Made by a program: the position numbers and the translations under genes. DNA of 64,000 nt from Polyangiales bacterium (GTDB lineage: Bacteria > Myxococcota_A > Polyangia > Polyangiales > Houyiibacteriaceae): contig OZ245758.1 in the NCBI GenBank assembly GCA_965227405.1, positions 1,321,693 through 1,385,692 of the forward strand. Direction: 5' to 3'. Shown here piece by piece: positions 3,910 to 54,787 of the stretch. The notes beneath the pieces were generated by a model. That model was not told the origin of the DNA and did not search any database. It saw only the letters and a list, made by a program, of their open reading frames with translations. How positions within the stretch are numbered: the stretch's first letter is position 1; each line of letters opens with the position of its first letter.

Positions 3910-4364
3910 TGGCTCGAGATCCAATCCCCACGTACGTGTTCGCGATGGTGGTCGCGCGCCACGAAGGCCGAATGCTCGTCGTGCACGAGCGAAAGCACGG
4001 GGGCGGTTGGTATCTACCCGCGGGTCGCGTGGAGCCGGGTGAAACACTGCGCGATGCGGCGATTCGCGAAACGTTGGAAGAGTCCGGAGTGGAAGTCGAA
4101 CTCGAAGGACTGATCCGCGTCGAACACACACCACACCCCAAGGGCACTCGATTTCGCTTCTTCTTCCTCGCGCGACCGGTGGGCGATCCCTCGCCGCGAA
4201 CCGAACCCAACGAACACACCTTGGGTGCGGCGTGGAAAACTCCGGACGAGCTGAGCCAGATGCACTTGCGCGGCGACGAAGTTCTCGCGCTCGCTCAAGC
4301 GGTGGCGTCGGGCACGCTCAAGGTCGGAACGCTGCCCACGTTCGAGGGTGCGCCCTGGCGCTGA
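3909..4364 (+). CDS. NUDIX hydrolase
   Basis: Nudix box GRVEPGETLRDAAIRETLEESGV (GX5EX7REUXEEXGU). GTG start overlaps the upstream TAG. Confidence 0.85.
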   Translation: MARDPIPTYVFAMVVARHEGRMLVVHERKHGGGWYLPAGRVEPGETLRDAAIRETLEESGVEVELEGLIRVEHTPHPKGTRFRFFFLARPVGDPSPRTEPNEHTLGAAWKTPDELSQMHLRGDEVLALAQAVASGTLKVGTLPTFEGAPWR

Positions 4365-4789
4365 AGCGCAAGCGCAATCGGAATCCCAATCGCCGGTAGT
4401 GTCCACGCGTCCGTCGGGTCCATGGTCAACACCACCGGTGCATAGCTCTGACCCGTGAGCGTACGAAAAGGCCATTGAAGCAGACCCATTCCGTGCTCGT
4501 AGAGCCATGCGGCGCTTGTCGAGGTGTTGATCGCCACCATGATCACGGCTGCCATAATCGCGCAGACGATCACCATGCGCGTCGCCATCGCAAACTCACG
4601 ACCGCCGCGAGCTCGCCACAGCTCGATCGCGCTTGGGAGCATGACCGGAATGACGATGAGACACGCCACATCACTGAGTTTGCCGACGAGCTCGCCACCC
4701 AGCGGTTTGAGCAGGTGGTCGTTGACCGCCCAAAGCGCAAGCGCACCGACGATGAGTGGGTGAACGATCAGCGCGCCAGGCTTGTTCAC
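4295..4789 (-). CDS. Membrane protein, hypothetical
   Basis: 164-aa ORF with 3-4 hydrophobic helices. Shares a 4-bp ATGA overlap with the upstream gene (4786..5301). Its 3' end overlaps the NUDIX gene by about 70 bp. Confidence 0.45.
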   Translation of the reverse strand: MNKPGALIVHPLIVGALALWAVNDHLLKPLGGELVGKLSDVACLIVIPVMLPSAIELWRARGGREFAMATRMVIVCAIMAAVIMVAINTSTSAAWLYEHGMGLLQWPFRTLTGQSYAPVVLTMDPTDAWTLPAIGIPIALALQRQGAPSNVGSVPTLSVPDATA

Positions 4790-5326: not shown

Positions 5327-6190
5327 CTACAGTGCCTGAAGAAGCGCCGCGTTCACCCGCTCAGGGTTCTCGAGATGCAGAAAGTGTCCGAGTCCGTCCT
5401 GGCGATCGATGGTGACGCTTGCGACGTGCTCTCCGGGATCGGCGAGCTCTGGGCTAAACGCAGGATCGTCCATTCCCCAAATCACATGCACGGGTGCTTC
5501 GATCTTCGTGAGCTCGATGTCGCCCGGTTTTCGACGTAACAACGCGGTGTAGTAGGTCATCATCGACCGCATCGCGCCTGGTTGTCGTCCAGCACGCGCG
5601 TAGGGCGCGAGGTCTTTCCACTTGGGCTTGCGACGCGCGAACCACCACAACATGAGCCGCTGTGGAAACGCGTTGAATCGTCGGTAGATGAACGCGGCGA
5701 AGCGTCGCATTCGAAAGAAGTAGAAGTAAAAGCTCTTCACACGCTGCTTGAGCGTGCCCCAAGCCTTCGCGAACACCGCAGGGTGCGGCATGTTCAGCAC
5801 GATCAGCTTGGCGAGTTTGTCGGGATGCCGCATGGCGAACATCCACGCGGCGACCCCACCCCAATCGTGCCCAACAACGATCGCCTTCGATTCACCGAGT
5901 GTTTCGACGAGAGCTCCGATGTCGTCACCCAGCGTCTCGAGTCGGTAGTCCTCAACGTTGGGCGGCTTGTCCGAGAGGTTGTACCCACGCATGTCCGGCG
6001 CGACCACGCGAAACCCTGCATCGACCAGTGCGGGGATCTGATGTCGCCATCCATACCAGTGCTCCGGAAATCCGTGGATCAAGATCACAAGCGGACCCTC
6101 TCCCTGCGTGACGTAGTGAAGAGTGACGCCCGTGGACAACTCAGCACGCGCTGAGACCAAACCGTCCCAGCCACCGTCGAGTGCAGTCAC
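5327..6190 (-). CDS. Alpha/beta hydrolase (epoxide hydrolase / haloalkane dehalogenase-like)
   Basis: LVILIHGFPEHWYGWRHQIPAL..., nucleophile elbow VGHDWGG, and the PDMRGYNLSDKP motif typical of this family. Confidence 0.85.
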   Translation of the reverse strand: MTALDGGWDGLVSARAELSTGVTLHYVTQGEGPLVILIHGFPEHWYGWRHQIPALVDAGFRVVAPDMRGYNLSDKPPNVEDYRLETLGDDIGALVETLGESKAIVVGHDWGGVAAWMFAMRHPDKLAKLIVLNMPHPAVFAKAWGTLKQRVKSFYFYFFRMRRFAAFIYRRFNAFPQRLMLWWFARRKPKWKDLAPYARAGRQPGAMRSMMTYYTALLRRKPGDIELTKIEAPVHVIWGMDDPAFSPELADPGEHVASVTIDRQDGLGHFLHLENPERVNAALLQAL

Positions 6191-6732: not shown

Positions 6733-8337
6733 ATGCGGCGAGCGGGCCGAGCAGGGCGAATCTGGCGCCGACTGGTTTTCGTTTCGTGGTGTGCATGCAC
6801 GCCTACCGAACCGAGCATGCCGGTGAACAGCTCGTCCGACGCGGGCGTGGATGCGCCTTTGATGGACGCACATCCCCGACTCGACGCGACGGTGTGGCGC
6901 AGCTCACTCTACTCCGAAGATTGGTCGCCGCAGCAGACACGCGGCCCGCGCTTTTTGCACGACTTCTCGTACGCGGGCTACGCCAACGGGCAGCGCCAAC
7001 CCGAGCCTCTCGAGGCGCGCTTCGACGTACGCGACTTCGATGCCCATCCATCCCGCGACGACAACACCGCTGCGTTCCAAGCCGCGATCGACGCAGCTTC
7101 CGAGGCGGGAGGCATTGTCTGGATTCCTGCCGGGACCTACCGCCTTGCAGACACTCTCACCATCACCGGGTCGCACGTCGTTCTTCGTGGTGAAGGACCC
7201 ACACGATCGAAGCTCTGGTTTACCAACCTTGTCGGAATGGCAGGTCGAGCGCATCTCCACGTCCGTGGCCACGTGACGCACGACGGCGAGGCACTCTTGG
7301 TCGACGACGCAGGCGTGGATCACCGCGTCCTCGTCGACGACACGACAGCGTTTGAGGTTGGTGACCAGGTCGATGTTGGTTGGGTCATCTCGCCGCAATT
7401 CGTCGAAGAACACGGCATGTCCGGAACCTGGCAGGTCTTCAACGATACGTGGCAACCCTTCTTTCGCCGCACGGTGACCTCGATCGAGGGCGACACCATC
7501 ACTCTCGATGTGCCGCTTCGCTATCCCGCAAAGACGCGCGACTTCGCCAGTGTCCGACGAAGCCACGGTTGGATCCGCGAAGTCGGCATCGAGTCTCTCG
7601 GCTTTCGTAACGCCGGCAACGAAGACGACGCATGGGCAGAGTCGCAGTCGCACCTCATCGAGCTCTCGGGCGTCATGGACGCTTGGGTCGATGGCGTCGC
7701 AACGTTCGGCGATGACGAACACGTCGCGTCGGGAGGTTTGCTCATTCGAGACAGCAAGCGTGTTACGGTCGCCAACAGCGCGATGGGCGCCGCTCAAAAC
7801 CGAGGTCCTGGAGGAAACGGATATCTCTTCGAAGTCCGGACAAGCAGCGAGATCTTGTATCGCGATTGCGTGGCGCGCGGCGGCAGACACAACTTCATCA
7901 CCAACTGGGGCTTTGGAACCTCGGGTGTGGTTTGGCTACGCGTCCACAGTCGAGACGGTGAAGCGTTGTCGAGTCGGGATGGTTTTCGCACGTTGGGCGT
8001 CTCCGACTTTCACCACTCACTTGCGACCGCGAACCTGGTCGACTCAAGCGTGATCGACGACGGCTGGAGCGCCCGCAACCGGTTGACGTACAGCTCAGGT
8101 GCCGGACACAGCGCGACAGAATGCGTGTTCTGGAACACGTCCGGTCGCGGCACTCTACGTTCGTATCAGTGGGGACATGGCTACGTGATTGGAACCTCTC
8201 CACAACTCGAAGTGTCCACCCAGGATCCCCTCCCGGACGAAACTCCCGAAGACTGGGCAGAAGGAATCGGTCGTGGAGCATTGCTCGCACCGTCTTCGCT
8301 CTACGAGGATCAGCTGGAGCGACGACTGTCGCGGTAG
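6733..8337 (+). CDS. Pectate-lyase-superfamily right-handed beta-helix protein (secreted/lipoprotein)
   Basis: FDVRDFDAHPSRDDNTAAFQAAIDAASEAGGIVWIPAGTYRL is the rhamnogalacturonase / pectate-lyase-superfamily N-terminal signature. Signal-like RLVFVSWCAC. The start is ambiguous (6733 or 6817). Confidence 0.75.
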   Translation: MRRAGRAGRIWRRLVFVSWCACTPTEPSMPVNSSSDAGVDAPLMDAHPRLDATVWRSSLYSEDWSPQQTRGPRFLHDFSYAGYANGQRQPEPLEARFDVRDFDAHPSRDDNTAAFQAAIDAASEAGGIVWIPAGTYRLADTLTITGSHVVLRGEGPTRSKLWFTNLVGMAGRAHLHVRGHVTHDGEALLVDDAGVDHRVLVDDTTAFEVGDQVDVGWVISPQFVEEHGMSGTWQVFNDTWQPFFRRTVTSIEGDTITLDVPLRYPAKTRDFASVRRSHGWIREVGIESLGFRNAGNEDDAWAESQSHLIELSGVMDAWVDGVATFGDDEHVASGGLLIRDSKRVTVANSAMGAAQNRGPGGNGYLFEVRTSSEILYRDCVARGGRHNFITNWGFGTSGVVWLRVHSRDGEALSSRDGFRTLGVSDFHHSLATANLVDSSVIDDGWSARNRLTYSSGAGHSATECVFWNTSGRGTLRSYQWGHGYVIGTSPQLEVSTQDPLPDETPEDWAEGIGRGALLAPSSLYEDQLERRLSR

Positions 8338-9021: not shown

Positions 9022-11145
9022 CTAGAAATACAGCTCGATCGTGAACGTATCGATCGCACCGTCCTCGGTCAGCAACTGATCCATGTGCTCAGCCAAGGGT
9101 TGCCACACCGCTCCTCCATGCAGCAGGGGTGACTCGACATTGACCATGTTGAGTGCGGGAACACGATGCGATTCGTTCGGTCCTCGCACGGTTGCATCCC
9201 ATCGCAGATCCGTCGCTGTTCGACGTGGACGTGCATGGATTTCACCCACCAAGCCACTACTCGTTCGTCGCAACATCAGCGACACGAGTCGCGGCGCACC
9301 ATTGGCTGAGCGCACGATTCGGTTGAGAAAGCGCATGATGCCCTGACGTGTTTGCAAGTTGACTCCCTCGCGCAAGCTCGCGGGAAGCACAGTTCGCGGA
9401 TCGTCGATGTCGATTTTGAATCCTTCGCCCTCGAACCGATCTGTCGTCGGGAGTGGATCGGTGTTCGGGTTCATCGACAGGCGAGCACGCAACGCGTTGG
9501 ACATGTCGCGGATGGCTTGCAAACGCTCGGGCAACGCCGCCGTGCAATCGTATTCACGCTGAAGCGACTGCGCGATCCTGGCAGCAGCATAGTCCGCTCC
9601 CATCACACCGCACTGACCGACAAAGAGCAGTCCCGTATCGTCGAGCGCGGCAACACCGAGTTCGTTGTCCGCCGCCATATCCAGCAACATCATTCGTACA
9701 CGCGTGGGCACGGCATCCCAGTGTCGCGCGAGCAAGTCGTTTTGTTGGCGTCGCGCCATGGCGCTGATGAGTGAAAGATTTGCTTGTTCCTCAAGCCTGC
9801 CTTCGCGCACGGCCGTCTCGAACTGGCGGCGCAACAACCGGACCGTCGCGTCGTCCGCGTCGAAGCTGGCGACCACGCTTAGGAAAATCTCGCGATCGAC
9901 AGGATCACGAGACGTTCCCAAGCGACGCACAAAGCTCGCGGCTTCCCGCTCGAACATGCGCACGTACGCGTACGCCACCCCGTACCGCTCGTGTTGACTA
10001 AGACGAGAGTAGATTTGGGGAACCTCACGTTTTGCACGCGCTCGATCCGCTTCGATCATTCGCGTCACTAATCGATCCGAAGGCGTAAACCTTCGTCCTG
10101 GACTCGTCAGTCGCCGACGCGCATCGGCGTATCCAGAGTCCGCCTGTGCGCTTTGCCACCACTCTCTCGCATCATCTGCACCTTGGAACTGAATCCCGGC
10201 GAGTTCCGTCAGTCTCTGCAACGCCATCTTCCCCACACGGTTGACGACTCGCTGCGCCCACGGACTCGGGATCACGCGTCGATCGTCGAGCAGAGCCAAG
10301 AGCATTTGAACGCGCCCCGCAAAGTCCGCGCTCTCAAACTGCTGCCGGGCGGTGCCTCCTTGCGGCATGAAAAGAAGCGCACCGTCGTTCGGATCACCCG
10401 GCGTCCACAAGTCGCCTCGGATCTCTTGTGCGTACGCCGCGGCTTCGGTGCCCTCGAGCGCAATGATGTGGTCGAGACGTTCACGCATCGCCGCGGTCGC
10501 ACCCTCTTCGTTTGCTGCAAAGCGATGATTCGCGAAGTAGAGCAGCTCAAACGCCACATCGCCGCGCAGCTGCATGATCCGTTCACCATCAAAGGGCTGC
10601 GACAAGTGCGGCATCTCCAGCGCGAGTTCGAGCAAGGGCTGGATCCAACGCGTCTCACCATCGTTGCGGGCTTTGCGCGCGAGGTTGAGCACCATCACCG
10701 AAGCGATGCCTTGCGAATGAAGACCAATCGCCGATGCACGAACATGAGGGTCCGCGTTCCGGACGCGCTGTACGTAGTCGCGGATTCGGTCCACAGCTTC
10801 AGGCAGTTCAACCTCTTCCGGAAACTGGTATGGACTCAGGTAGCCCGGGTAACCGATCGAGACGATGCACTCTTGCGCGTCCGCACTCGCGGCCAGACCC
10901 CAGCGCGGGCCGTTTTCGGTCCAGAACATGATCACGCCGTCGGTTCCTGGAAGGTCGGCACCGTCCAGCACATCGAGCAACGCCATCGCTTGTTCGAGTT
11001 CACCCGTCGGAACAGGTGTTTCGGTCAGCGCGCGTCGTTCCTCCACATGAGCAACCGGCAACGTTGAAGGTCGAGCCGAGTCAGTCGCGCCACCGCAGGC
11101 AGCGACCAAGACCAGAGATACCCATCGAGTCATCGCGCGCAGCAT
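9022..11145 (-). CDS. Large lipoprotein of unknown function
   Basis: Lipobox MTRWVSLVLVAACGG; 707-aa coherent sequence with no recognisable catalytic motif. Confidence 0.7.
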   Translation of the reverse strand: MLRAMTRWVSLVLVAACGGATDSARPSTLPVAHVEERRALTETPVPTGELEQAMALLDVLDGADLPGTDGVIMFWTENGPRWGLAASADAQECIVSIGYPGYLSPYQFPEEVELPEAVDRIRDYVQRVRNADPHVRASAIGLHSQGIASVMVLNLARKARNDGETRWIQPLLELALEMPHLSQPFDGERIMQLRGDVAFELLYFANHRFAANEEGATAAMRERLDHIIALEGTEAAAYAQEIRGDLWTPGDPNDGALLFMPQGGTARQQFESADFAGRVQMLLALLDDRRVIPSPWAQRVVNRVGKMALQRLTELAGIQFQGADDAREWWQSAQADSGYADARRRLTSPGRRFTPSDRLVTRMIEADRARAKREVPQIYSRLSQHERYGVAYAYVRMFEREAASFVRRLGTSRDPVDREIFLSVVASFDADDATVRLLRRQFETAVREGRLEEQANLSLISAMARRQQNDLLARHWDAVPTRVRMMLLDMAADNELGVAALDDTGLLFVGQCGVMGADYAAARIAQSLQREYDCTAALPERLQAIRDMSNALRARLSMNPNTDPLPTTDRFEGEGFKIDIDDPRTVLPASLREGVNLQTRQGIMRFLNRIVRSANGAPRLVSLMLRRTSSGLVGEIHARPRRTATDLRWDATVRGPNESHRVPALNMVNVESPLLHGGAVWQPLAEHMDQLLTEDGAIDTFTIELYF

Positions 11146-14300: not shown

Positions 14301-17217
14301 ACGCCGACTCTACGTCGCCGGTCCGGACGAGGCACCGGACCGCGATCCGCCTGGGGCGCCGATTGCGGTTACGCCCACCCGCCGTTCCTATTCGGTGGGC
14401 GAAGAAGCCGAGCTCGCGTTTGAGTCACCATGGGATGACGCGTTGGCGTTGATCTCGATCGAACAAAACGGGGTGGTCTCGTACGAAACACGCGAAGTCG
14501 ACGCGGGTGGTCAAGTCATCCGTGTTCCGCTGACCGAAGAGATGGTTCCCAACGCGTTCATTGCGGTGTCGTTGGTGCGTGCCCGAACTGCGCCTCCGGG
14601 CGAACAGGTCGACGTTCACGGTCCCGACCTCCGGTTTGGCGCCGCCGAGATTCGGGTCGTTCCGGGACTCTCGCAGCTGGAAGTGTCCACGCGTGCTCCG
14701 GAGCGGGTTGAACCGGGCCAAGAGATCGAGGTCAACGTGCACGTCGACGGTGCGTCTGGGCCCACCGAGGTTGCGCTGTGGATGGTCGACGAGGGATTGC
14801 TTCGTCTTACGGACTACACCACGCCCGATCCCATGTCGGGTTTGTGGCCGCGTGTCGCACCACACTTCGCCTGGGAAGACCTGCGCCGTGCACTGGTGGC
14901 TCGCGTCACTCCGCCTGCAGAACGTGCCGGTGGCGATGGCGGCGAAGTTGCACAACGGACGTTACGACCCGATGAGCCCGTGCTCGATCCGGTGCCGCTC
15001 TGGGAGCCGCATCTGGTCACCGATTCGTCGGGCAACGCGAGCGTGCGCGTTCGACTGCCGGAGCGAACGACCGAGTACCGCATTATCGCGCTCGCGATCG
15101 ACGAGGGTTCCGCGTGGGGTCATCACGAGTCACAGGTCGTCGCAACGCGCCCCGTCGTGCTTGCGGATGCGCTGCCGCGTTTCCTTACGGAGAACGATCG
15201 CTTCGAAGCCGCGTTCTTCGTGCATGGGACAAGCGATGATGACGTCACCCTGCCCGTCCGCATCACCGTGGACGGCGAGGAAGTTCACCGCGAGGAGGTC
15301 ACGCTTCGCGGCCGTGGTCAGAAGCGCATCGCCATTCCCTTGGTGGTGGAGCAACTCGGAAGCATGGACGTGGAGCTGCACGCCGGAAACGCTACGCTCG
15401 CGAGAACGATCCCAGTCGCGCCGCGTGCGCGTTGGATGCGCAGCGTTGCCATTGGCGGTGCGGAAGGCGAGCCCGGATCGCAAAGCAACCGTGAACTGAT
15501 GGTGAATCTGCCTCCCTCAGACGGCGGAAGCATGAATGTGACCGTGTCGAACCACCCCTTCGTGGGCCTCGACCTGGTCGCCGAGATGCTCGAGTCGTCA
15601 CCGTGGGGCGGGCTAACGCACAACGCGTCGACGGTGATTGGACTCGCCGCTCTCACCCGTGTCCACGAAGGCATGCCTCGCGACCGCGCCGAGGAACTTC
15701 AGATCCGCGGCGACCGCGCTGTACGTCAGCTCGTGCTTTTGCAAACCGGCGACGGTGGCTTTGGCCGGTGGACAGGCAACGGCTACGCGTCGGCATGGGA
15801 ACAAGCGTTCGCCATGCACGCGCTCCACGTCGGAAAACAAGCAGGATTCAACGTGCCCGAGGACGTGTACGAACGCTCACGCGCGAACCTCCGACGCTGG
15901 GTGGAGGAACGCTCACTCGCCGACAGCTACTACCGCCGTGAGCCAGACACTCGCGCGTTCGTGTTGCGCGTCTTGGCCGACGCTGACGATCCGATGCCCG
16001 AAGAGATGGGAACGCTCTTCGACAATCGCGACCAGCTGGGTATCGAAGGACTCGCAAACCTCGCGCTGGCCATGGACGAAGACGCAACTCGACGGGCAAC
16101 GCTGGTAAAGCAGGCGATCGACTACGCGCTTGTCGACCACACGGAAGACGACACGTTGGCCGTATACGTGCGGCACTGGGACCGGCGCGCCAGTGTGCTT
16201 GGCCCCCTTCTCGAGGTGGTCTCGACCACACGCGCAGGCATCGCGAGTTCCGGACCCGTTGCGAGCGAGCTCCTGAAGTTGGCCCAAGCAGGTTCACGCT
16301 TCGTATGGCGCACCTCGTTTGATGCGGCGCACGCACTCCAGGGCATAGCTGCATACGCGCAAGCGTTCACGCGCGACGCCGACGAGCTTCCGCAAGTCCA
16401 CCTCGACGGCGCCTTGCAGACAGCTGCAAGTGAAGCGGAGAACGCGGCACGCTACGCGTTCAACCCGCGCTCCCTAGGCGGCGAGTCGCATCAGCTTCGG
16501 TTCACGCCGGACGGCGAACGACCGTTCTTCTACGCGATGGAAGGCGAATGGTCGGTTCCACTCAGCGGCTTCGACCGGGTCGCACGCGGTCGACGCGTGT
16601 CACTCCATCGTCGCTTTGAAACGTCGACCGGTCGTCAGCTTCGCCCCGGTGATGCCGTGGAACTCGGCGAGATGATTCGGGTGCGCTTGTTCGTGTTCAC
16701 CGAGAACTCCAATCCCGGTGACGTGATGATTCACGACCCCATGGGCGGCGGGTTCGAAGCGGTGCAAAACCAGTTCGCCACAACTCCACAAAACGCATTG
16801 ATGGCGATGCTCGGCATGGGACCCGATGACGACGCGGTGGATCCGCGCGGGTACCACGCCATGCGCTCGAGCCATTCGATCAGCCATCGTGCGTTGGAGC
16901 GGAACGCAGCCGTGTACTACTTCGACAATCTGCCCACGGGATTGCAGGAGTACACGTACGTCGTCCGCGCCACGACCGTCGGTGAGTTCACGTTGCCTCC
17001 GGCACAGGTTCAGGCGGCGAGCGACCAGGAGTTCGAAGGTCGTTCGTCGATGTTTGAGCTACGCGTGGTCGAAGAGTTGACCGACGCGGACTTGATTCGC
17101 GAGGAGCCGGATTCGGAAGTCTTGGTCGACGAAGTCTCGGACGACGCAGCCTCGGACGACGAAGTTTCGGATAACGAAGTCTCGGACGGCCCCGACGGAA
17201 TCATGCCCGTCGAATGA
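11344..17217 (+). CDS. Bacterial alpha-2-macroglobulin family protein (thioester motif absent)
   Basis: About 1950 aa. Alpha-alpha toroid segment LVLLQTGDGGFGRWTGNGYASAWEQAFAMHALHV. Where E. coli YfhM has PYGCLEQTTS, this protein reads SPWGGLTHNAST. N-terminal TM anchor. Overlaps the pbpC start by ATGA. Confidence 0.85.
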   Translation: MKKSGSTVQGDGPYREAPVQQPPDKTPGWIIGVIGGMIVLGVSLAILRDDPEQMPELEDVPGVLLDSLAVYPAPTEDLPPAVPLDPLLAADQPEMLSVMEPGPGAMRLQRNEPIHVRFNRPMVEGAQVGQDLDSSPIRFTPPIKGTATWSSRSRLIFHADGSAWNRSLEARMSFDPDLRSLDGSTVFDEHERVVVFDGTPHLAQTSTRTVSPGEALPLFFDNPVSAAQLGRDVMLYEVGGGSRSIPFALTGGRMEEQYYRVDLRPTRRLEEGASLAAAIAPRWTRWGGGSPSIVRYRVQPPPQITGVGCGDNAAAYGGCSYGAVPGRIVDIGPALRVLASEALREVLPNQVSIRPALRDMRIDFADDTHRVLQIRGEWAPDQVYEVRINALRTANNRSLQRFSPLAVRSAGHPPRVEVQTGRFAWEMDAETRLRFRGIHVGKGSIITRPVDPGDEIKAALDPAGYAAQDVDHAHYVLIGPLAPDARPNQWGEGEFHWHDGETRNANMAVVQFRAGEAHTGVTYPTLFAQRTNLATTVRALPDGVLIWVTTLNSGDAVGDAEIMLADSEGATISTAETGGDGVAWIALSDRDLTEERFVVRAVSGDDRQIVVVEPGSALGPARVGLAMGGEPPPEGAPRASVFADRGAYRPGELVRVKAMVRSLHRLGASAYRDQEVTLRVRSPSSVVPLIERTLRTNQFGTLSGSVSLPASAALGTYSVVVAIPPESEEARETVVGSTSFRVAQFRQPTFRVDIDVAETLLANEAIAAEANGTYLFGAPVGEGDVSWSLVRETAAGYPSRWREMQFGPVDGYVQHGTIASGSDKLSAEGALQLALSDGLSANRRERLVLEVEVRDRTGQTTAAHRNLTLLPSAVEVGIKRGDDWVGLGEALNLDAIVIDAEGEPVAEQRVETRFVREGWHRWYEWARGGHGSGYQMRREQERELVHTCALTSSDDLTTCTFTPDRPGTYVMEAEVVDTQGRRSLAQRRLYVAGPDEAPDRDPPGAPIAVTPTRRSYSVGEEAELAFESPWDDALALISIEQNGVVSYETREVDAGGQVIRVPLTEEMVPNAFIAVSLVRARTAPPGEQVDVHGPDLRFGAAEIRVVPGLSQLEVSTRAPERVEPGQEIEVNVHVDGASGPTEVALWMVDEGLLRLTDYTTPDPMSGLWPRVAPHFAWEDLRRALVARVTPPAERAGGDGGEVAQRTLRPDEPVLDPVPLWEPHLVTDSSGNASVRVRLPERTTEYRIIALAIDEGSAWGHHESQVVATRPVVLADALPRFLTENDRFEAAFFVHGTSDDDVTLPVRITVDGEEVHREEVTLRGRGQKRIAIPLVVEQLGSMDVELHAGNATLARTIPVAPRARWMRSVAIGGAEGEPGSQSNRELMVNLPPSDGGSMNVTVSNHPFVGLDLVAEMLESSPWGGLTHNASTVIGLAALTRVHEGMPRDRAEELQIRGDRAVRQLVLLQTGDGGFGRWTGNGYASAWEQAFAMHALHVGKQAGFNVPEDVYERSRANLRRWVEERSLADSYYRREPDTRAFVLRVLADADDPMPEEMGTLFDNRDQLGIEGLANLALAMDEDATRRATLVKQAIDYALVDHTEDDTLAVYVRHWDRRASVLGPLLEVVSTTRAGIASSGPVASELLKLAQAGSRFVWRTSFDAAHALQGIAAYAQAFTRDADELPQVHLDGALQTAASEAENAARYAFNPRSLGGESHQLRFTPDGERPFFYAMEGEWSVPLSGFDRVARGRRVSLHRRFETSTGRQLRPGDAVELGEMIRVRLFVFTENSNPGDVMIHDPMGGGFEAVQNQFATTPQNALMAMLGMGPDDDAVDPRGYHAMRSSHSISHRALERNAAVYYFDNLPTGLQEYTYVVRATTVGEFTLPPAQVQAASDQEFEGRSSMFELRVVEELTDADLIREEPDSEVLVDEVSDDAASDDEVSDNEVSDGPDGIMPVE

Positions 17218-20317: not shown

Positions 20318-22609
20318 ATGGGGAAGGAGGAGACGCTCACAGACACGATCGCTGAGCTGGACCAGACGTTCGTACGCGATTCGAAGGCCGAGGGGGATTG
20401 GAGCGTCCAGCCTTCGGAGCGGTACGAGCTAGGCGCGATCGTCGGATCGGGGGCCCAAGGCGACGTGCTGCGTGCCACAGACCGCGTGCTCGGTCGGGAG
20501 GTTGCGCTCAAGGCGTTGCGTCAAGACGGGATCGACCTCGACATTGGCAACTTCATTCGCGAGGCGCGGCTGATGGCGCAGATCGGCCACCCCAACATCA
20601 TGCCGATCTACGACGCCGGGCTTCTCCCCGACGGGCGGCTCTTCTACACCATGCCGCTACTCGAGCAGCGCACCCTCGCAGAGTTGATCGTCCAGATCGC
20701 GATGGGCGAAGACATGCCACTCGTGCGAAGGATGCGTCTGTTCGCAAACGCGTGCACCGCTGTCCACGAGGCACATCTCAAAGGTGTCTATCACCGTGAT
20801 CTAAAACCGCACAACATGGTGATCGGCCCGAGCGGTGAACTCCTCGTGACGGACTTTGGACTCGCGCGACGAGAAGACGAGGAGATCGAAAAGCGCGATC
20901 CAAACGAAACCGGTCCGATCGGAACACCTCTGTACATGTCGCCAGAACAAGCCCGCGGAGAACCTGGTGATGTGTCCTCGGACGTGTACTCACTCGGAGC
21001 GATTCTGTTTGAGCTGCTGACGCTGGAGCGTCCCATCGAAAAGGACAACGTGGTCAAGCAGCTGGTCGCTGTGTTGCACGATGACCCGCCACGTGCGCAT
21101 GAAGTTCATCCCGAAGTTCCGCTCGATTTATCTGAGTTGGCCGCGCGTTGCTTGGCCAAACTTCCTGGCGATCGTCCTGAGAGTGCACTTGCCGTCGTCG
21201 AAGGAATCGAGGGATGGCTTGAAGGTCGCTTTGAAGATGAGCGGCGGAGGCAGGAGTGCCGCAAGCGCGTGGAACATGCGCAAGAGCGACTGGGAGTTGC
21301 AAAGCGACTGAGCACTGCGATCGGCGCGCTGCAAGGTCAGCTGCACGCGATGCGACTCGACACACCGGAACACGCACCGCTGAAGGTCAAACAACCGTTG
21401 TGGGAGATGGAAGGCAACATCGAGCGGCTTGTGTTGGAACGCGACGAAGCGGAGGAAGCCGCGGTCGCATCCTTGGAACTAGCCTTGCGAGCACGCCCGA
21501 AAGATCCAGCTGCATCCAGTACGTGGGTCGAGGTTCAGCTTCGGCGTCGCGAGCGGTTACTCGAAGCTGGACACGAAGTGCTTGCCCGGCGTGCGGCGGC
21601 GCGTGCGATCCGTGTCGGTGGTGATGTCCTGGAGCATCAACTTTACGGTGCCGGACGACTCTGGGTGCAGACCGATCATCCCGTTTGGTTGGAACGCTAC
21701 GCAGTACGTGGAGGCACACTCCAACCTAGCGAGCCCGTCGAAGTGCGGACCCAAATCGATCTCCCGCCGGGTTCGTATCGCTTGCGCGCCAACGTTGCGG
21801 GCGTCGATGTGTTTCTTCCCGTGTTGATCGAAGCCGGCGAAACGTTGCCCGTGGGCTTTCACCCCGGACTTCAGAGCGCGTTGCCGCAGGGGTTTGCGCT
21901 TGTGCACGCCGGTCGAACTCAGCTTGGTGGGGATCGCGATGCGATTCACTCCGAACCCGCGCGTGTCGTGGAGATGCACAGTTTTGGGATGGCGCGGCGA
22001 CCCGTGACTGCTGCCGAGTACCTCGCTTGGCTGCGGACGTTCGACGATCCCGAGACCGCGTTGTTGAAAGGACCGCGTGCGACACCAGATGGTGGTCCGT
22101 ACTGGAAAGTCGTGGACGGGTGCATCGTGATTCCCGTGGAAGACGACGATGGGGATGCGTGGGATCCGAACTTTCCGGTGTTTGGGATCACGCGTCGTGA
22201 CGCTGAGGCGTATGTCGAGTGGCGGTCGAAACGGGATGCTCGGCACTACCGGTTGCCGACGGACGATGAGTGGGAACGAGCCGCGCGAGGAGCGGATGGT
22301 CGACGCTATCCGTGGGGTGATCGTTTCGATCCTGCGTTGTGCAAGATGCGGCTTTCGCGTCCCGGTCAGTTTCGTCCTGAACCCATCGGTGCGTTTGCGA
22401 CCGATGTGTCGCCTTTCGGCATTGTGGACATGGCGGGTTCGATCGCCGAGTGGACCAGTTCAGCGTACCGTGATGATCCTGTGCATGTGAGTGTGCGGGG
22501 AGGTGCGTGGAGTAGTCGTGCGCATCGATGTGCGGCTTCGTTTCGGGGTTCGATGATTGTCGATCATCTCAGCGCGGACCTAGGGTTTCGTCTGGTCGTT
22601 GACCTGTGA
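20318..22609 (+). CDS. Ser/Thr protein kinase fused to a C-terminal FGE-sulfatase (SUMF1-like) domain
   Basis: Kinase: GSGAQGDVLRA, VALK, HRDLKPHNMVI, DFGLAR, SPEQ. C-terminus: GMARRPVTAAEYLAWLRTF...RGGAWSSRAHRCAASFRG, the formylglycine-generating-enzyme fold. Confidence 0.85.
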   Translation: MGKEETLTDTIAELDQTFVRDSKAEGDWSVQPSERYELGAIVGSGAQGDVLRATDRVLGREVALKALRQDGIDLDIGNFIREARLMAQIGHPNIMPIYDAGLLPDGRLFYTMPLLEQRTLAELIVQIAMGEDMPLVRRMRLFANACTAVHEAHLKGVYHRDLKPHNMVIGPSGELLVTDFGLARREDEEIEKRDPNETGPIGTPLYMSPEQARGEPGDVSSDVYSLGAILFELLTLERPIEKDNVVKQLVAVLHDDPPRAHEVHPEVPLDLSELAARCLAKLPGDRPESALAVVEGIEGWLEGRFEDERRRQECRKRVEHAQERLGVAKRLSTAIGALQGQLHAMRLDTPEHAPLKVKQPLWEMEGNIERLVLERDEAEEAAVASLELALRARPKDPAASSTWVEVQLRRRERLLEAGHEVLARRAAARAIRVGGDVLEHQLYGAGRLWVQTDHPVWLERYAVRGGTLQPSEPVEVRTQIDLPPGSYRLRANVAGVDVFLPVLIEAGETLPVGFHPGLQSALPQGFALVHAGRTQLGGDRDAIHSEPARVVEMHSFGMARRPVTAAEYLAWLRTFDDPETALLKGPRATPDGGPYWKVVDGCIVIPVEDDDGDAWDPNFPVFGITRRDAEAYVEWRSKRDARHYRLPTDDEWERAARGADGRRYPWGDRFDPALCKMRLSRPGQFRPEPIGAFATDVSPFGIVDMAGSIAEWTSSAYRDDPVHVSVRGGAWSSRAHRCAASFRGSMIVDHLSADLGFRLVVDL

Positions 22610-22612
22610 CGC

Positions 22613-23083
22613 TTAGGGTTTGTAGTCGTAGACGACGACATCGATGTCGTGGCTGACCAGTTCGGACTGGATACGGGCTTCGACTTCGTGCCATTTGCCC
22701 CCGGCCAGTCCACATCCGATGCGTGGCATGTGCACGCTCGCGTTGAGTTCGCGGGCTTTGTCGCGAGTTGCTGCGAGACCTTTGGCGATGGCGTCGTAGC
22801 GGACTGGCGGTACTCCGTTGACCGGCTTGTAGCCTTCTTGGCCGATGACGTTGGCGACCCAGAGCGAGTCTTCGACTTGGACGAACTGGGTGGCGCCGAG
22901 CGAGAAGCCTTCGCGGGAGCGGTACCACTCGCGGTATTTGCGTTCGGGTGTTTTCCAGCGGCGTGAGATGGCGACGACGAAGCCGGCGCCCCAACCGCCG
23001 CGGTCGTTGCAGACGTGAAGAAGGATTTTGGTTCCATCCCCGATTGGGCGTGTGGCGTCACCCTCGACGAAGCGAAGCGTCAT
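22613..23083 (-). CDS. Macro domain (ADP-ribose binding/processing) protein
   Basis: Start MTLRFVEGD (cat 23081-23083). ILLHVCNDRGGWGAGFVVAIS and HMPRIGCGLAGGKW match macro-domain motifs. Confidence 0.8.
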   Translation of the reverse strand: MTLRFVEGDATRPIGDGTKILLHVCNDRGGWGAGFVVAISRRWKTPERKYREWYRSREGFSLGATQFVQVEDSLWVANVIGQEGYKPVNGVPPVRYDAIAKGLAATRDKARELNASVHMPRIGCGLAGGKWHEVEARIQSELVSHDIDVVVYDYKP

Positions 23084-23116
23084 AAGCGAAGCGTCGCTTT
23101 CCTCCCAACCGGAATC

Positions 23117-23158
23117 AACCCACCCACGTGCTGCAGTACCCACCCACTTGCTCCAATA
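23117..23158. repeat. Tandem imperfect about 20-bp direct repeat (CCCACCCAC-N-TGC...TA)
   Basis: aacccacccacgtgctgcagta followed by cccacccacttgctccaata, 34 bp upstream of the macro gene start. Confidence 0.3.
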
Positions 23159-23281
23159 CCCCCAGCGTGCGCGCTGGACTGGTCGCTAGTTGCTGGTTAG
23201 CGAGCTCCGCCAGCTGCCGCGCTTTGCACTAACGACCCTCGCGGACCATCGGCGACGCTCGCTCGCCCACCCAAAGCACAA

Positions 23282-23312
23282 CGCGCCCTCCCGAGTCACT
23301 CGGCAGGGCGCG
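23282..23312. repeat. 31-bp near-perfect palindrome/hairpin 3' of the HUH gene
   Basis: cgcgccctcccgagtCactcggcagggcgcg; 15-bp arms with one mismatch; core ccgagtcactcgg is perfect. Confidence 0.45.
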
Positions 23313-23338
23313 CTTGGTGTTGTTCCGAACCTCCGCTC

Positions 23339-24253
23339 CTACGCGGCCTCGGCAGGTGGGTCCGCCCGACCCTCCACCTTCACGCCAAACAACACCCGCA
23401 TCTTCCACGTGCCCTCCGGAAACACACACGGCTTCCCAGCACAGTACTTCTCCAGCGCACTCTCGTACGCCTCTCCAAACGACTTCAACAACGACAACAT
23501 CGTCTTCCGCCGTTCACCACGTCCCGCAACACGCGGATTGATCCCCGTTCGCTTCGCCTTCGTACCCGGTCGCTCCCAAATACCCTGCTGCCGAATACGC
23601 TTCATCCCCAACGGACGCTCGGGCCTCGGGATCGCCCGCAACTCGCGATGCAACGTCGCCACCACTTCCTCTCGATCCCAATCCTCCAAACTTGGTGGCA
23701 TCTCCACACGCAACTTCATCCGCGTCGGCAACTTCGTTCGCTTCGAAGCACACTCCGGACGCTTCACATCGATCACCCTCTGACCCATGTCCTCCGGCTT
23801 CGACATCGAACCTTCCCACTGCGTCCACTTCGCGACCAGGCCAGAGAGCTTCGCGTTCCCCATCGTGTACACCAGCTTCTCAATCACGGTCAGGTCACAT
23901 GGCTTGATGTCGTTGCTCAAGTCCACCGCACTGATCTGCGAGCTGTTCCACACGCCTTCGTCAATATCTGGAAAGTGCCGTTTGAGAAGATTCGCAATGG
24001 TCTGATCCAAGTACTGATGAAAGAGCGGCGCCTTCCCATGCACATCGGTGATCACGATGTGAAAGTGGTTGCTCATCAAAATCCATCCATGCACACGCAC
24101 ACCGGTCCGAAACGCGGCATACGCAAGTGCAAAGAGAAAGATCTGCTTCACCACATCATCGCAGGGCGGAAACCGAAAGAACCGCTGCGACGTCCGACGC
24201 GTCAGCAAATAGGTAACGCCCTCGAGCACCATCCGAGCCTTGGACACGCCCAC
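23339..24253 (-). CDS. IS200/RAYT-like HUH (Y1) transposase-family protein with basic C-terminal extension
   Basis: HGWILMSNHFHIVI (HUH) and, about 55 aa downstream, KLVYTMGNA (candidate catalytic Tyr). The gene is visibly lower in GC than its flanks. 304 aa with a K/R-rich C-terminal half. Confidence 0.6.
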   Translation of the reverse strand: MGVSKARMVLEGVTYLLTRRTSQRFFRFPPCDDVVKQIFLFALAYAAFRTGVRVHGWILMSNHFHIVITDVHGKAPLFHQYLDQTIANLLKRHFPDIDEGVWNSSQISAVDLSNDIKPCDLTVIEKLVYTMGNAKLSGLVAKWTQWEGSMSKPEDMGQRVIDVKRPECASKRTKLPTRMKLRVEMPPSLEDWDREEVVATLHRELRAIPRPERPLGMKRIRQQGIWERPGTKAKRTGINPRVAGRGERRKTMLSLLKSFGEAYESALEKYCAGKPCVFPEGTWKMRVLFGVKVEGRADPPAEAA

Positions 24254-24281
24254 TCATCGGCCCAAGACGCGAGGAGTTGCG

Positions 24282-26366
24282 CTAAATCGGCGATGGAGGC
24301 GGTGCGACAGGATCGGTGGGTGTCGGCGGTGCCGGGGGCGGAGTGGCGCTACCGGAGGACAACCCCAAGTCGAAGTTCCGCCCCGCCAACACGGATGCCC
24401 AAGCGCTCGGACCGACCAGGTTAAACGTCCCGCCGTTCTCCTCGAGCGTCGTCGACGTCAACGCCTCGCCAGCACTCTCGACAATACAATTCGGGGTCAC
24501 AATCCCGATTGCATCCCCACCATTCGCCAGCATCAACACACACCCACCGCCCGAGCAATCACGCGGAACATCAAGATCAAAGTTCAAGCTTCCGATCTCC
24601 ACCTCACGTGTTGTGCCTTCGTTCGCGGTGATCCGAATCTCGTCGGCACGTCCGCCTTGCAAGAGCGTGCCGCCAAAACGCGCACCCATCACAGAACCCT
24701 CAGCGTCGTAAAACGCAATTCCCATGCGCTCGTTTGCCCGAAACTCGCTCCCGTCCACATCCACGTTCGCACCGACCGACGCTTCAATCCCACCACGACC
24801 GGCTCCCTCGAATCGTCCCCCGGTCACACTCACAGCATGCGGGCCGCTGATCTGAAAACCCACGTTGTCGCTACCATCGACCACGACCTCGGTCGCAGTG
24901 CTCGCGGTTGCGTGTGCATCACCGCTCAGAACGACACCACGAACCGACGCGTTTTCGACAATGGTATTGGTCAACGCAAACCGTGACGCGTCGTGCGCAA
25001 ACACGCCGACCTCCACATTCTGAAGCATCGCATCCGAGACCGTCACAACGCCTCCCGACAACGCTGCAACGCCGACGCCAACGTTGGCCATGCTCACATC
25101 ACCAAGGGTCAGCTCCGACCCGCGCACGCTAAACGCCGTCTCAACATCACTCGCTTCAACCGTCCCGGCAAGACCCGCCATACCGGCCTCCGCGACAAGC
25201 ACCCCAAGCGCTCCACCACTTAACTGATACGTCCCATCGGTCGATGTCAGTGTTCCTTCGCGTACATACGCATGCGTCGCCATTGTGCTCGTGGTTTCGC
25301 TCCGAAGTGCTCCAGCAAGGGTCACGCTGCCCGTATCCACGAACAAACCGGTCCCCTCTCCAAGCAGCTCAATGCTCACTGCGTCGCCCAACGTGACGTC
25401 CCCCGATGCGGCAACCAGACCAAATCCTGCGATGGCTGCAAAGTCGGTCCGCGCGACATCAACGCTGGCATTGTTGTCGACGATCAACCCCGCAACCGAC
25501 GGTCCTTGAAACAGAACACCGTCCAATGACGCCACACCGCCCCGAACTCGATTGTGTCCAAAGAACGCTCCATCGTCGGTTTGACCTCGCAGCTCCAGAT
25601 CAGGCCCCAAGGTCGCAGCAACCGCATCCTCTACCCACAGCCCCGCATTCCCGGCCAACACAAGCGTGCTCGTCATGACAAGAGTGCCACCACGGGAAAG
25701 CACTCCGTAGTTTCCACCGCTTCCCATAATGGTTGTGTTGGATTCAGTACGCAGCGTTGACCCCGGCGTCGCTACGACCGCCGCACGCTGAAGCGCAGCC
25801 GGTGCCGTCGCGACCGCACCGGTGCGCAACGTGGAGCCGCGCAACGTAGCTTGTGCACTCCCCTCGAGAACCACACTCGCCTGCACGTCCTGAAACTCGA
25901 TGTTCTCCAGCTCCACGATGACATCGCGCGCATAAACACCAACGGCACAGCCTTCGATGGTCACGTCTCGAATGGTGAGGCGCGCAGCCACGTTCACGGC
26001 CACCGGCGCGTCCTCCCGCACCGCGTCATCGAACGCATCGAGAATCGACACGCTCGCACATCCCAGCGATCCGCTCAGCAAGGTCTGTCCGGCTCCCGCA
26101 CCTTCAATGTTCACAGCCCGGTCGAAACTGTCCGGTAGCGTGAACGCGCCCACGCCCACACACACGCGGTCCCCACTCGCGCCAAGCGCCTCTTCCAACG
26201 TGCCAAAGGGCACGGCTTCCGTCCCGTTGCCCCCACTCGCACCACTTTCGACGTAGATGCAGTCAGACGGGCCAACGTCTGTTCCACCATCCATCGGCGG
26301 CATCCCGTCGTCGTCACCGCAGGCGAGTGCAAGCGCACAAAGAAAGACAAGAAGGAGGCGAATCAT
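24282..26366 (-). CDS. Secreted lipoprotein with right-handed parallel beta-helix repeats
   Basis: Start MIRLLLVFLCALALACGDDDG (lipobox LALAC). Long G/A/V/T-rich beta-helix-like repeats. C-terminal Pro-rich tail PPPAPPTPTDPVAPPPSP. Confidence 0.75.
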   Translation of the reverse strand: MIRLLLVFLCALALACGDDDGMPPMDGGTDVGPSDCIYVESGASGGNGTEAVPFGTLEEALGASGDRVCVGVGAFTLPDSFDRAVNIEGAGAGQTLLSGSLGCASVSILDAFDDAVREDAPVAVNVAARLTIRDVTIEGCAVGVYARDVIVELENIEFQDVQASVVLEGSAQATLRGSTLRTGAVATAPAALQRAAVVATPGSTLRTESNTTIMGSGGNYGVLSRGGTLVMTSTLVLAGNAGLWVEDAVAATLGPDLELRGQTDDGAFFGHNRVRGGVASLDGVLFQGPSVAGLIVDNNASVDVARTDFAAIAGFGLVAASGDVTLGDAVSIELLGEGTGLFVDTGSVTLAGALRSETTSTMATHAYVREGTLTSTDGTYQLSGGALGVLVAEAGMAGLAGTVEASDVETAFSVRGSELTLGDVSMANVGVGVAALSGGVVTVSDAMLQNVEVGVFAHDASRFALTNTIVENASVRGVVLSGDAHATASTATEVVVDGSDNVGFQISGPHAVSVTGGRFEGAGRGGIEASVGANVDVDGSEFRANERMGIAFYDAEGSVMGARFGGTLLQGGRADEIRITANEGTTREVEIGSLNFDLDVPRDCSGGGCVLMLANGGDAIGIVTPNCIVESAGEALTSTTLEENGGTFNLVGPSAWASVLAGRNFDLGLSSGSATPPPAPPTPTDPVAPPPSPI

Positions 26367-54657: not shown

Positions 54658-54787
54658 AGGGTTCAGATTGGGGACAGGGTCAGATCTGACCCGAACTCCT
54701 CCGAAAACGACCGACTTTCCCCACGATCACTAATTGTATGGTCACATAGTTCAGTTCAGATCTGACCCTGTCCCCAAACTGAACCCC
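54658..54787. repeat. Inverted-repeat element: two 33-35-bp arms (about 30/32 identical) around a 16-bp perfect palindrome GGGTCAGATCTGACCC, with a 61-bp spacer
   Basis: Arm A 54658-54692 gggttcagattggggacagggtcagatctgaccc. Arm B 54754-54787 is its reverse complement with two mismatches. It sits between convergent gene 3' ends. Confidence 0.6.

Follow-up and report, generated by a model that had tools for sequence, protein, structure and literature searches.

The question raised by this locus is whether a gene for an IS200/RAYT-like HUH transposase homologue, the palindrome and tandem repeats that follow it and a macro-domain gene downstream form one low-GC, horizontally acquired islet, as proposed in an earlier note on this DNA, or whether the HUH gene and its non-coding surroundings are a unit of their own. 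RAYT-type enzymes provide the principal example of transposases domesticated by bacteria; what they do for the cell is still under debate. Our analysis of the window, i.e., the whole stretch of 64 kb that contains the locus, leads to the verdict that the HUH gene and its own cis elements (Table 1) make up a low-copy module of the class-2 Y1 type (RAYT/TIRYT-like), and not a defence or foreign islet. For annotation, this means that the label of an ordinary IS200 transposase does not fit the HUH gene, and neither does membership of an ADP-ribose or defence islet.

Table 1. Features of the locus, in order along the strand of the HUH gene (window coordinates).
Feature	Position	Strand	Description
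Leader, non-coding, conserved	24233..24282	-	GCGCAACT ... GGCCGATGAGTGGGCGTGTCCAAGGCTCGG, upstream of the ATG
HUH gene, class-2 Y1 (RAYT/TIRYT-like)	23339..24232	-	297 aa from ATG at 24232
Post-stop box	23313..23338	-	GAGCGGAGGTTCGGAACAACACCAAG
Hairpin	23279..23316	.	core palindrome 23282-23312 plus CAA/TTG pair extension
Spacer, hairpin to array	23162..23278	-	sequence unconserved among divergent copies, length similar
G-rich tandem direct repeat	23118..23161	-	20 nt x 2.2 copies, GGGTGGGTACTGCAGCACGT-like on the gene strand
Macro gene	22613..23083	-	156 aa, ALC1-like (SCO6735/BT1257 type), likely ATG at 23083

The maximal open reading frame of the HUH gene (23339..24253, minus strand) comprises 304 aa from a GTG at 24253; the ATG listed in Table 1 is the start in homologues and in the identical database entry P0316. 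In the numbering of the 304-aa frame, the N-terminal ~150 aa form the HUH core with H63, H65 (in the motif NHFH), Y129 and N133, all four invariant in 28 of 28 family members, so that the Y1 HUH signature and tyrosine recognized earlier are well founded. The same holds for the K/R-rich C-terminal half: these ~150 aa contain 22% K+R (pI 10.1) vs 11% (pI 9.0) in the N-terminal half, and this basic character is a family-wide feature. The AF2 model of the protein (pLDDT 91.9, pTM 0.90) has the ferredoxin-like HUH core fold with the basic extension packed on it. Modelled alone, the C-terminal half reached a pTM of only 0.36, and searches of Pfam and of PDB sequences with this half alone matched nothing. 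It is not a separate domain and does not fold independently but wraps the catalytic core, where it probably adds DNA contacts.

The family to which this protein belongs is large: a search at E<=1e-30 gave at least 1,770 protein clusters, in which the C-terminal half is conserved over its full length. Of the best 150 clusters listed, nearly all have a length of 290-310 aa and align from end to end. Where the genome is named, carriers of the family belong to the Myxococcota and Planctomycetota, and a scan of a genome collection gave matches in Myxococcota MAGs only. Direct similarity to PF01797 (Y1_Tnp), expected in the earlier note, was not borne out for the query itself, which scored 13 bits (E 0.11) against a gathering threshold of 23 bits; 21 of its 28 relatives match this model at E<=1 (best 9.7e-6). 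The RAYT model NF047646 is matched by all 28 relatives (best E 3.9e-17), and by the query with 23.8 bits over residues 6-74 only, below the curated cut-off of 80. A profile of the family aligned with TnpA_REP (4er8; E 8.6e-5) across the HUH, Y-NPV-G-V and WP motifs, with H63/H65 and Y129 placed opposite their 4er8 equivalents. The family consensus of the tyrosine motif is Y[TV]LxNPV; in the present clade it reads YTMGNAK, i.e., the proline is lost while N133 is invariant. Searches with PADLOC, PHROGs, plasmid tblastn and a viral fold library all left the HUH protein unmatched. The gene is a member of a large, unstudied RAYT/IS200 branch of ssDNA nucleases, and what makes it of interest is that this very large, unannotated sister family of the RAYTs has an intact active site, a 150-aa extension that lacks known relatives and a compact group of conserved DNA elements adjoining the gene.

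Compared with known systems, the locus resembles the TnpA_REP/RAYT system of E. coli (4er8) in its HUH motif, the tyrosine with Asn at +4, the NPV-G-V and WP motifs of the family consensus, the hairpin adjoining the gene and the low copy number. It differs in that the protein has double the length and a C-terminal half that is basic, conserved and devoid of known relatives, and falls below the NCBIfam cut-off, and in that GTAG-tagged REPs or BIMEs are replaced by a direct G-rich array. Instead of the inverted hairpins on both sides of a REPtron there is one hairpin, on the 3' side only, while on the 5' side the locus directly adjoins the stop codon of the next gene and has no hairpin. Since the hairpin is one-sided and single-copy in the 64 kb read of a 9.07-Mb genome and no dispersed REPs occur in the window, a classical REP/RAYT system, one of the options raised before, is not supported. 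Class-2 TnpA_Y1 genes, defined by the motif Y---NP, are low-copy with divergent copies and include REP-less subclasses with large C-terminal domains (PMC6006769), and TIRYT genes are flanked at fixed distances by G-rich GGGGWSAS repeats (PMC3733652). With the TIRYTs, or TnpA_Y1 subclass 2.1 (Di Nocera 2013, PMC3733652; Quentin 2018, PMC6006769), our family shares a length greater than that of RAYTs, the lack of REPs, few and divergent copies, G-rich repeats at fixed distance (GGGTGGG or GGGGTG here) and, in its consensus though not in the present clade, the class-2 Y---NP motif. The TIRYT group was reported to be prevalent in delta-proteobacteria. Unlike the TIRYTs, however, its members have ~300 aa rather than a median of 238, and a C-terminal domain of the HTH or Bac_DnaA_C type is not detectable: none of 28 full-length proteins and 18 C-terminal halves gave a Pfam match to Bac_DnaA_C, HTH_23 or HTH_28 at E<=1. 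Likewise, no pair of inverted repeats brackets the HUH gene in the window, where a one-sided direct array and a hairpin take the place of terminal inverted repeats, although inverted arrays are present at the distant member L003. TnpA_Y1 subclass 2.3 (325 aa) was also considered and rejected, because the AF2 model shows no large insertions in the core.

The non-coding elements around the gene are conserved as well. The 50-nt leader overlaps the stop codon of the beta-helix gene upstream, with the G of that codon as its first base, and aligns in the divergent copies L010, L001, L052 and, partly, L002, despite different upstream genes; no conserved stem was found in it. The post-stop box has a core, GGTTCGGAACAAC, that is common to the divergent copies. 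The palindrome reported earlier proved real, with 15-nt arms that are 93% complementary, and a 91-nt segment containing it folds better than shuffled sequences (z = -2.8). In the folded form the outer stem has 13 bp and a single G.G mismatch, and the apical stem 5 bp; the hairpin lies about 26 nt past the HUH stop. The same hairpin is found 3' of the copies L009, L010 and L052, and a degenerate one in L001. Among the window, L010 and L052 the hairpin is ~90% identical vs 70-72% for the coding sequence, third codon positions of which are only 52-58% identical; in the alignment 93.7% of cells are paired and two pairs have changed on both sides, compensatory changes located in the apical stem. 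On the gene strand no U-tract follows the hairpin, and a promoter and terminator scan found no promoter and did not class the hairpin as a terminator, as no T-run follows it. A search of 22400-24500 against Rfam gave nothing credible, and no second copy of the hairpin occurs within the window.

The tandem repeat noted before is likewise genuine. The array (GGGTGGGT units) is of the direct G-rich type and starts about 120 nt beyond the hairpin. Its length varies between orthologues, with 2.2 units in the window, 4.2 in L054 (97% orthologue) and 7.5 in L009 (92% orthologue). L010, L001, L052 and L002 have related arrays with a GGGTGGG core at 155-212 nt from the stop. Four distant members were read, two of which (L003 and L055/L056) also adjoin short-repeat arrays, in L003 on both sides and in inverted orientation. 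Only two arrays with a score >=60 occur in the entire window, and compared with this background of 2 per 64 kb arrays are ~100-fold enriched beside family genes; the GGGTGGG unit was found nowhere else in the 64 kb.

Gene, hairpin and repeats are thus conserved together: leader, hairpin and array recur with L010, L001, L052 and L002, each in a different gene context, and L008/L051, in yet another context, have hairpin-like structures and repeats. This supports the view that hairpin and tandem repeat belong with the HUH gene, as they recur beside divergent copies (~70% nucleotide identity) in unrelated genomic contexts. Neither a clear hairpin nor a repeat array was seen at L053 (51% identity) or L004. 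The inference of a module is based on about six independent contexts, since only a handful of loci were read. One copy of the family is present in the window, and its orthologous position is kept in L009 and L054 at 92-97% protein identity. Because the copies are only ~70% identical and this position is stable, the module seems to be low-copy, old, and domesticated or barely active, unlike a proliferating IS.

Our preferred explanation, to which we assign a probability of about 0.6, is that the gene encodes a class-2 Y1 HUH (RAYT/TIRYT) ssDNA nuclease/ligase within a ~1.2-kb module that has its own cis elements and is domesticated or barely active, with the macro-domain gene as a bystander. 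Fold, catalytic residues, family size, the joint conservation of gene, hairpin and repeats, the variable array length and the missing link to macro genes are observed; catalysis, the DNA cut and a biological role are inferred. By analogy with TnpA_REP and IS608 TnpA, H63 and H65 would bind a divalent metal together with N133, and Y129 would cut ssDNA, leaving a 5'-phosphotyrosyl intermediate open to resealing, while the basic C-terminal half wrapped around the core would probably make further contacts with the DNA. The protein may act as a monomer rather than as a domain-swapped dimer, which is suggested by its closer fit to the RAYT structure. The gene appears to travel with its 50-nt leader, conserved hairpin and G-rich array of 20-nt repeats, and the enzyme likely acts on or binds the hairpin and perhaps also the repeats. 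Enzyme and adjacent cis elements offer a ready-made pair for in vitro work that may reveal the role of REP-less Y1 enzymes. A more far-reaching reading, which we consider possible but rather improbable, is that the ~300-aa family constitutes a separate Y1 HUH subclass that is widespread and as yet undescribed, for which the sequence-specific hairpin would serve as nicking site and which would bind and resize a G-rich, iteron-like array. Just as tentatively, its cis system would then be unlike REPs, TIRs and IS ends and have a layout like that of a Rep origin, in a chromosomal and domesticated setting. The GGGTGGG-core units could fold into G-quadruplexes on ssDNA.

Both the idea of a low-GC, horizontally acquired islet and that of a link between the HUH gene and ADP-ribose metabolism or defence are not supported by base composition and gene context. 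The GC content of the HUH gene (0.58) indeed lies in the 2nd-3rd percentile of the window (mean 0.617, sd 0.020). However, this dip is an effect of amino acid composition, because its GC3 (0.73) exceeds the 0.65-0.69 of its neighbours; the macro gene has a GC content of 0.616 and the whole finding one of 0.602 (20th percentile), i.e., GC3 and overall GC are native-like and do not support horizontal acquisition. The macro-domain gene itself is real and, judging from sequence similarity, probably encodes a hydrolase of the SCO6735/BT1257 (ALC1-like) type, as the protein matches PDB entries end to end (residues 2-154) with E values of the order of 1e-53 to 1e-57 (2afc, 6.7e-57; 2fg1, 7.9e-57; 5e3b, 8.5e-53). 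Its start is likely the one given in Table 1, since a 176-aa form would start inside the repeat array, the unit number of which differs from orthologue to orthologue by amounts not divisible by 3. An islet that combines an ssDNA cutter with a DNA de-ADP-ribosylating hydrolase for defence or counter-defence would fit the common strand, the distance of 255 nt and the pairing retained in L009 and L054. It would also fit the activity of SCO6735-type macrodomains, which strip ADP-ribose from thymidine in ssDNA (PMC9411070), also the substrate of HUH enzymes, and the weak match of the macro protein to the DarG model (3e-10). That match covers the macro part only, at 30 bits vs a cut-off of 250, no DarT-like partner adjoins the pair, which is flanked by genes for a protein kinase/FGE-sulfatase fusion and a beta-helix protein, and the macro family has >5,000 homologues of lone-macrodomain size. 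More importantly, a macro gene stands beside the HUH gene in none of nine independent, non-orthologous contexts read, and the adjacency is restricted to the orthologous loci L009 and L054. The HUH gene is thus not linked to macro genes in general, and this absence of co-occurrence largely refutes such an islet, which we regard as highly unlikely; a PADLOC match for the HUH protein was lacking as well. The macro gene is probably not part of the module and would lie downstream by chance.

A still active single-gene insertion sequence of the IS200/IS605 type, with leader and 3' hairpin as its ends and "peel and paste" movement of ssDNA, would account for the conserved non-coding ends that accompany the gene into different contexts. 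It could also explain why up to six family proteins, with pairs 97-99% identical, occur in the cluster table for one 9.07-Mb contig (P0003, P0004, P0314, P0318 and P0319 besides P0316, with P0314 as a 97.6% identical copy), why contig ends cut four of the seven genome matches (L004, L006, L007, L008) with many members on 1-3-kb contigs, and why one copy directly follows a tRNA-Phe gene. We nevertheless judge it unlikely. In contrast to IS608 and ISDra2, the locus has neither a left-end hairpin nor tnpB, and it has Y---N where IS200 has Y---Q; at the left boundary of five copies no left-end hairpin, common target sequence or target-site duplication was seen by eye. Furthermore, the DNA that could be read is neither multi-copy nor near-identical (a single copy in 64 kb, ~70% identity elsewhere), the orthologous position is stable, and no plasmid or phage relatives were found. 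It is about equally improbable that the cis elements are ordinary ones to which the HUH protein is unrelated, the hairpin being a terminator for the beta-helix and HUH genes and the array a slippage-prone VNTR or part of the macro promoter. The hairpin does lie 26 nt past the stop, stems of its class are common in unrelated contigs, some of them followed by T-runs, the array stops ~35 nt before the macro start codon and slippage produces such changes in copy number. Yet the hairpin lacks a U-tract and is not called by the terminator scan, its outer stem is conserved in sequence, and not in structure alone, between copies saturated at synonymous sites, and the enrichment of arrays is high. Divergent copies with a convergent or unrelated gene downstream are followed by GGGTGGG-core arrays at the same spacing; these arrays, therefore, do not represent a macro promoter.

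A metagenome scan for the hairpin pattern yielded 40 loci, none of them with an HUH gene. These look like unrelated GC-rich, terminator-type stems and carry no weight on either side of the question of REP-like spread. Their number is approximately that expected for a 22-base pattern in GC-rich DNA (rough estimate). The hairpin of the window itself occupies a terminator-like position, and identical GC-rich stems form terminator-like hairpins in unrelated metagenome contigs.

The RAYT/IS200-like gene on the minus strand, together with the hairpin and G-rich array that follow it, is probably (at about 0.6, by analogy with known systems) a class 2 Y1 HUH enzyme acting with its own DNA elements. 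Taken alone the protein scores weakly, with no Pfam match at E ≤ 0.01, 13 bits against PF01797 and 23.8 bits against the NCBIfam model REP_Tyr_transpos (cut-off 80). The similarity to PF01797 that the earlier note suggested checking held for the family (21 of 28 members at E ≤ 1) but not for the query, and all 28 members match NF047646. Across the family, the assignment leaves little doubt: H63, H65, D70, Y129 and N133 (numbered in the 304-aa ORF) are invariant in 28/28 members, and the family profile aligns to E. coli TnpA_REP (4er8) over the HUH, Y-NPV-G-V and WP motifs. Since Y---N(P) marks class 2 of the TnpA_Y1 classification and Y---Q the IS200 class (PMC6006769), the protein is assigned to class 2 as a probable member, its own clade having lost the Pro. 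Its AlphaFold model is a single compact fold (pLDDT 91.9, pTM 0.90). The C-terminal half is indeed rich in K and R (22%, pI 10.1) and conservation runs through its full length; it found no relative among Pfam and PDB sequences. Because it gives no confident globule when modelled alone (pTM 0.36), we read it as a putative extension wrapped round the core, not an independent domain. In an exhaustive profile search, 1,770 clusters reached E ≤ 1e-30; among the 150 top matches listed, nearly all are ~300 aa long and align end to end. The genome-collection matches are Myxococcota/Polyangiaceae MAGs and one family representative carries the name of a Planctomycetota MAG; plasmid, phage and defence-library searches with the HUH protein gave no relatives.

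Features of the locus (window positions) and divergent copies of the HUH gene at other loci (L numbers)
Feature	Position or length	Strand	Context
Beta-helix protein, 813 aa	24282..26723	-	
Gap, beta-helix gene to HUH ORF	49 nt		
HUH ORF, maximal	23339..24253	-	
Palindrome	23282-23312		3' of HUH ORF, spacer then repeat array
Tandem repeat, 20 nt x 2.2	23118-23161		after spacer, before macro ORF
Macro-domain ORF, maximal	22613..23143	-	
Ser/Thr-kinase/FGE-sulfatase fusion gene	20318..22609	+	convergent with macro gene
L010 copy			between Coq4 gene and hypothetical genes
L001 copy			adjoins IgGFc-binding gene
L052 copy			directly after tRNA-Phe gene

All the features listed in the earlier note (palindrome, tandem repeat, basic C-terminal half, macro gene) are present; two start positions need revision. 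The HUH protein starts at the ATG at 24232, which gives 297 aa, as in homologues and in the identical database protein P0316. For the macro protein the ATG at 23083 (156 aa) is the most likely start, and the alignment of this form to solved homologues begins at residue 2. The 20 additional residues of the 176-aa database form (P0190) begin within the variable tandem repeat, and the shorter form is favoured because the longer one starts inside an array that varies by non-multiples of three between orthologues. The kinase/FGE-sulfatase fusion matches PADLOC PD-T4-6 kinase models strongly (1.5e-64), probably through generic kinase similarity.

The palindrome (arms of 15 nt, complementarity 93%) lies in a 91-nt region that folds better than shuffled sequences (z = -2.8). 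Other contigs carry divergent copies of the gene (68-73% protein identity) among wholly different neighbours, and a 50-nt leader beginning at GCGCAACT and a post-stop box are common to L010, L001 and L052. The same hairpin occurs 20-27 nt past the stop in L010 and L052, and in a degenerate version in L001. The 39-nt hairpin element is ~90% identical among the window, L010 and L052, whereas their coding sequences are 70-76% identical and the third positions only 52-58%; the hairpin differences, compensatory changes among them, are limited to the apical stem and loop. In L052, a tRNA-Phe(GAA) gene and terminator (5681-5755) precede the 71%-identical copy by ~45 nt.

The tandem repeat described in the earlier note is one of only two arrays with a score of at least 60 in the whole 64 kb. 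In the window, its orthologous loci L009 and L054, and L010, L001, L052 and L002, GGGTGGG-core arrays lie at +155 to +212 nt; in the L008/L051 lineage GGGTGGG-containing repeats are located further downstream. At several of these loci the gene that follows is unrelated or lies convergently, so the arrays are no macro-gene promoter. Comparison of the copies indicates that hairpin and repeats belong with the HUH gene. The number of units varies from 2.2 in the window to 4.2 in L054 (97% protein identity) and 7.5 in L009 (92%). Short-repeat arrays of other sequence adjoin two distant members (~35% identity), upstream of the gene in L055/L056 and, in L003, spanning ~650 bp on the upstream side and 500 bp on the downstream side, mutually inverted. 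The L003 arrays (7200-7870 and 9130-9650) consist of dense 10-30-nt repeats, GGGGTGCCCTAACCAGGTTGG upstream and CCAACCTGGTTAGGGTT downstream, bracketing a 36%-identical member; over 16.8 kb they occur nowhere but in the flanks of the gene, a layout like that of a REPtron/TIRtron. No clear array was found in L053 and L004, and the pattern is therefore frequent, not universal.

The earlier note suspected a lower-GC islet linking the HUH and macro genes. At 0.58, the GC content of the HUH gene is indeed low, in the 2nd-3rd percentile of a window averaging 0.617. However, the deficit is confined to codon positions 1 and 2, with GC3 at 0.73 exceeding that of the neighbours (0.65-0.69), and therefore comes from amino-acid composition. 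Neither the macro gene (0.616) nor the entire HUH-to-macro region (0.602, 20th percentile) stands out, and the islet does not hold. The macro gene is a SCO6735/BT1257-type ALC1-like macrodomain, a family that cleaves ADP-ribose off DNA thymidine (PMC9411070), and the two proteins would both work on single-stranded DNA. A functional link is nevertheless very improbable, as the contexts read lend it no support: besides the window, the two genes adjoin only in L009 and L054, and of nine further independent contexts none pairs them. In L053, a 51%-identical member is followed after ~430 nt by a convergent SIR2-domain gene (3958-4767), another NAD-linked neighbour and probably a coincidence.

It seems unlikely that the gene is a still-mobile insertion sequence. 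An IS200/IS605 element was rejected, with no left-end hairpin, tnpB, or common target sequence or duplication. The window holds one family copy, and the gene's orthologous position is stable over 92-97% protein identity, in agreement with published low-copy, divergent class 2 genes (PMC6006769). The macro protein is 100% identical to P0190, on the 9.07-Mb contig of this genome, for which the cluster table gives six family proteins; these form four lineages, mutually ~70% identical, two of them as ~97% identical pairs that may reflect recent movement or segmental duplication. In four of seven genome-collection matches (L006, L007, L008, L004; three of the four contigs from one Polyangiaceae MAG) the family gene is cut at a contig end, a hint that assembly fails at this gene or in its flanks. 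A classical REP system was also rejected, the hairpin and repeat unit being single-locus in the 64 kb and on one gene side only, with no related dispersed repeat family in the window. Ordinary cis elements, i.e., a terminator and a VNTR, are just as doubtful as a mobile element: array length variation fits enzyme action or plain slippage alike, but the terminator scan found no U-tract after the window hairpin, and its ~90% identity points to sequence constraint beyond what a structure-only terminator needs. A metagenome scan for the hairpin pattern returned only unrelated terminator-like stems, which speak neither for nor against REP-like spread.

In the preferred reading of an HUH enzyme acting with its own hairpin and array, H63 and H65 with N133 would hold the metal and Y129 would form a 5'-phosphotyrosyl bond to single-stranded DNA, as in TnpA_REP and IS608 TnpA. 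The basic extension could supply extra DNA contacts, and recognition or cleavage would take place at the conserved hairpin, possibly also at the G-rich units. RAYT/TnpA_REP is the best fold match. The other closest described kind is formed by TIRYT/subclass 2.1 genes, which are REP-less, longer and flanked at fixed distances by G-rich repeats (PMC3733652, PMC6006769); the family lacks their HTH C-terminus. It differs from both groups in its 150-aa extension and in having a direct array, on one side only, alongside a 3' hairpin. The module is a well-defined, testable enzyme-plus-DNA unit of a large uncharacterised family.

Two further repeats occur in the window. The only other strong tandem array (17116-17188, 15 nt x 4.9; GAAGTCTCGGACGAC) lies just upstream of a PBP1C-like ORF starting at 17214, and a 39-nt inverted repeat at 54659-54786 (GGGTTCAGATTGGGGACAGGGTCAGATCTGACCCGAACT ...; 92% complementary, spacer 50 nt) is a long-stem palindromic element, REPIN- or MITE-like.
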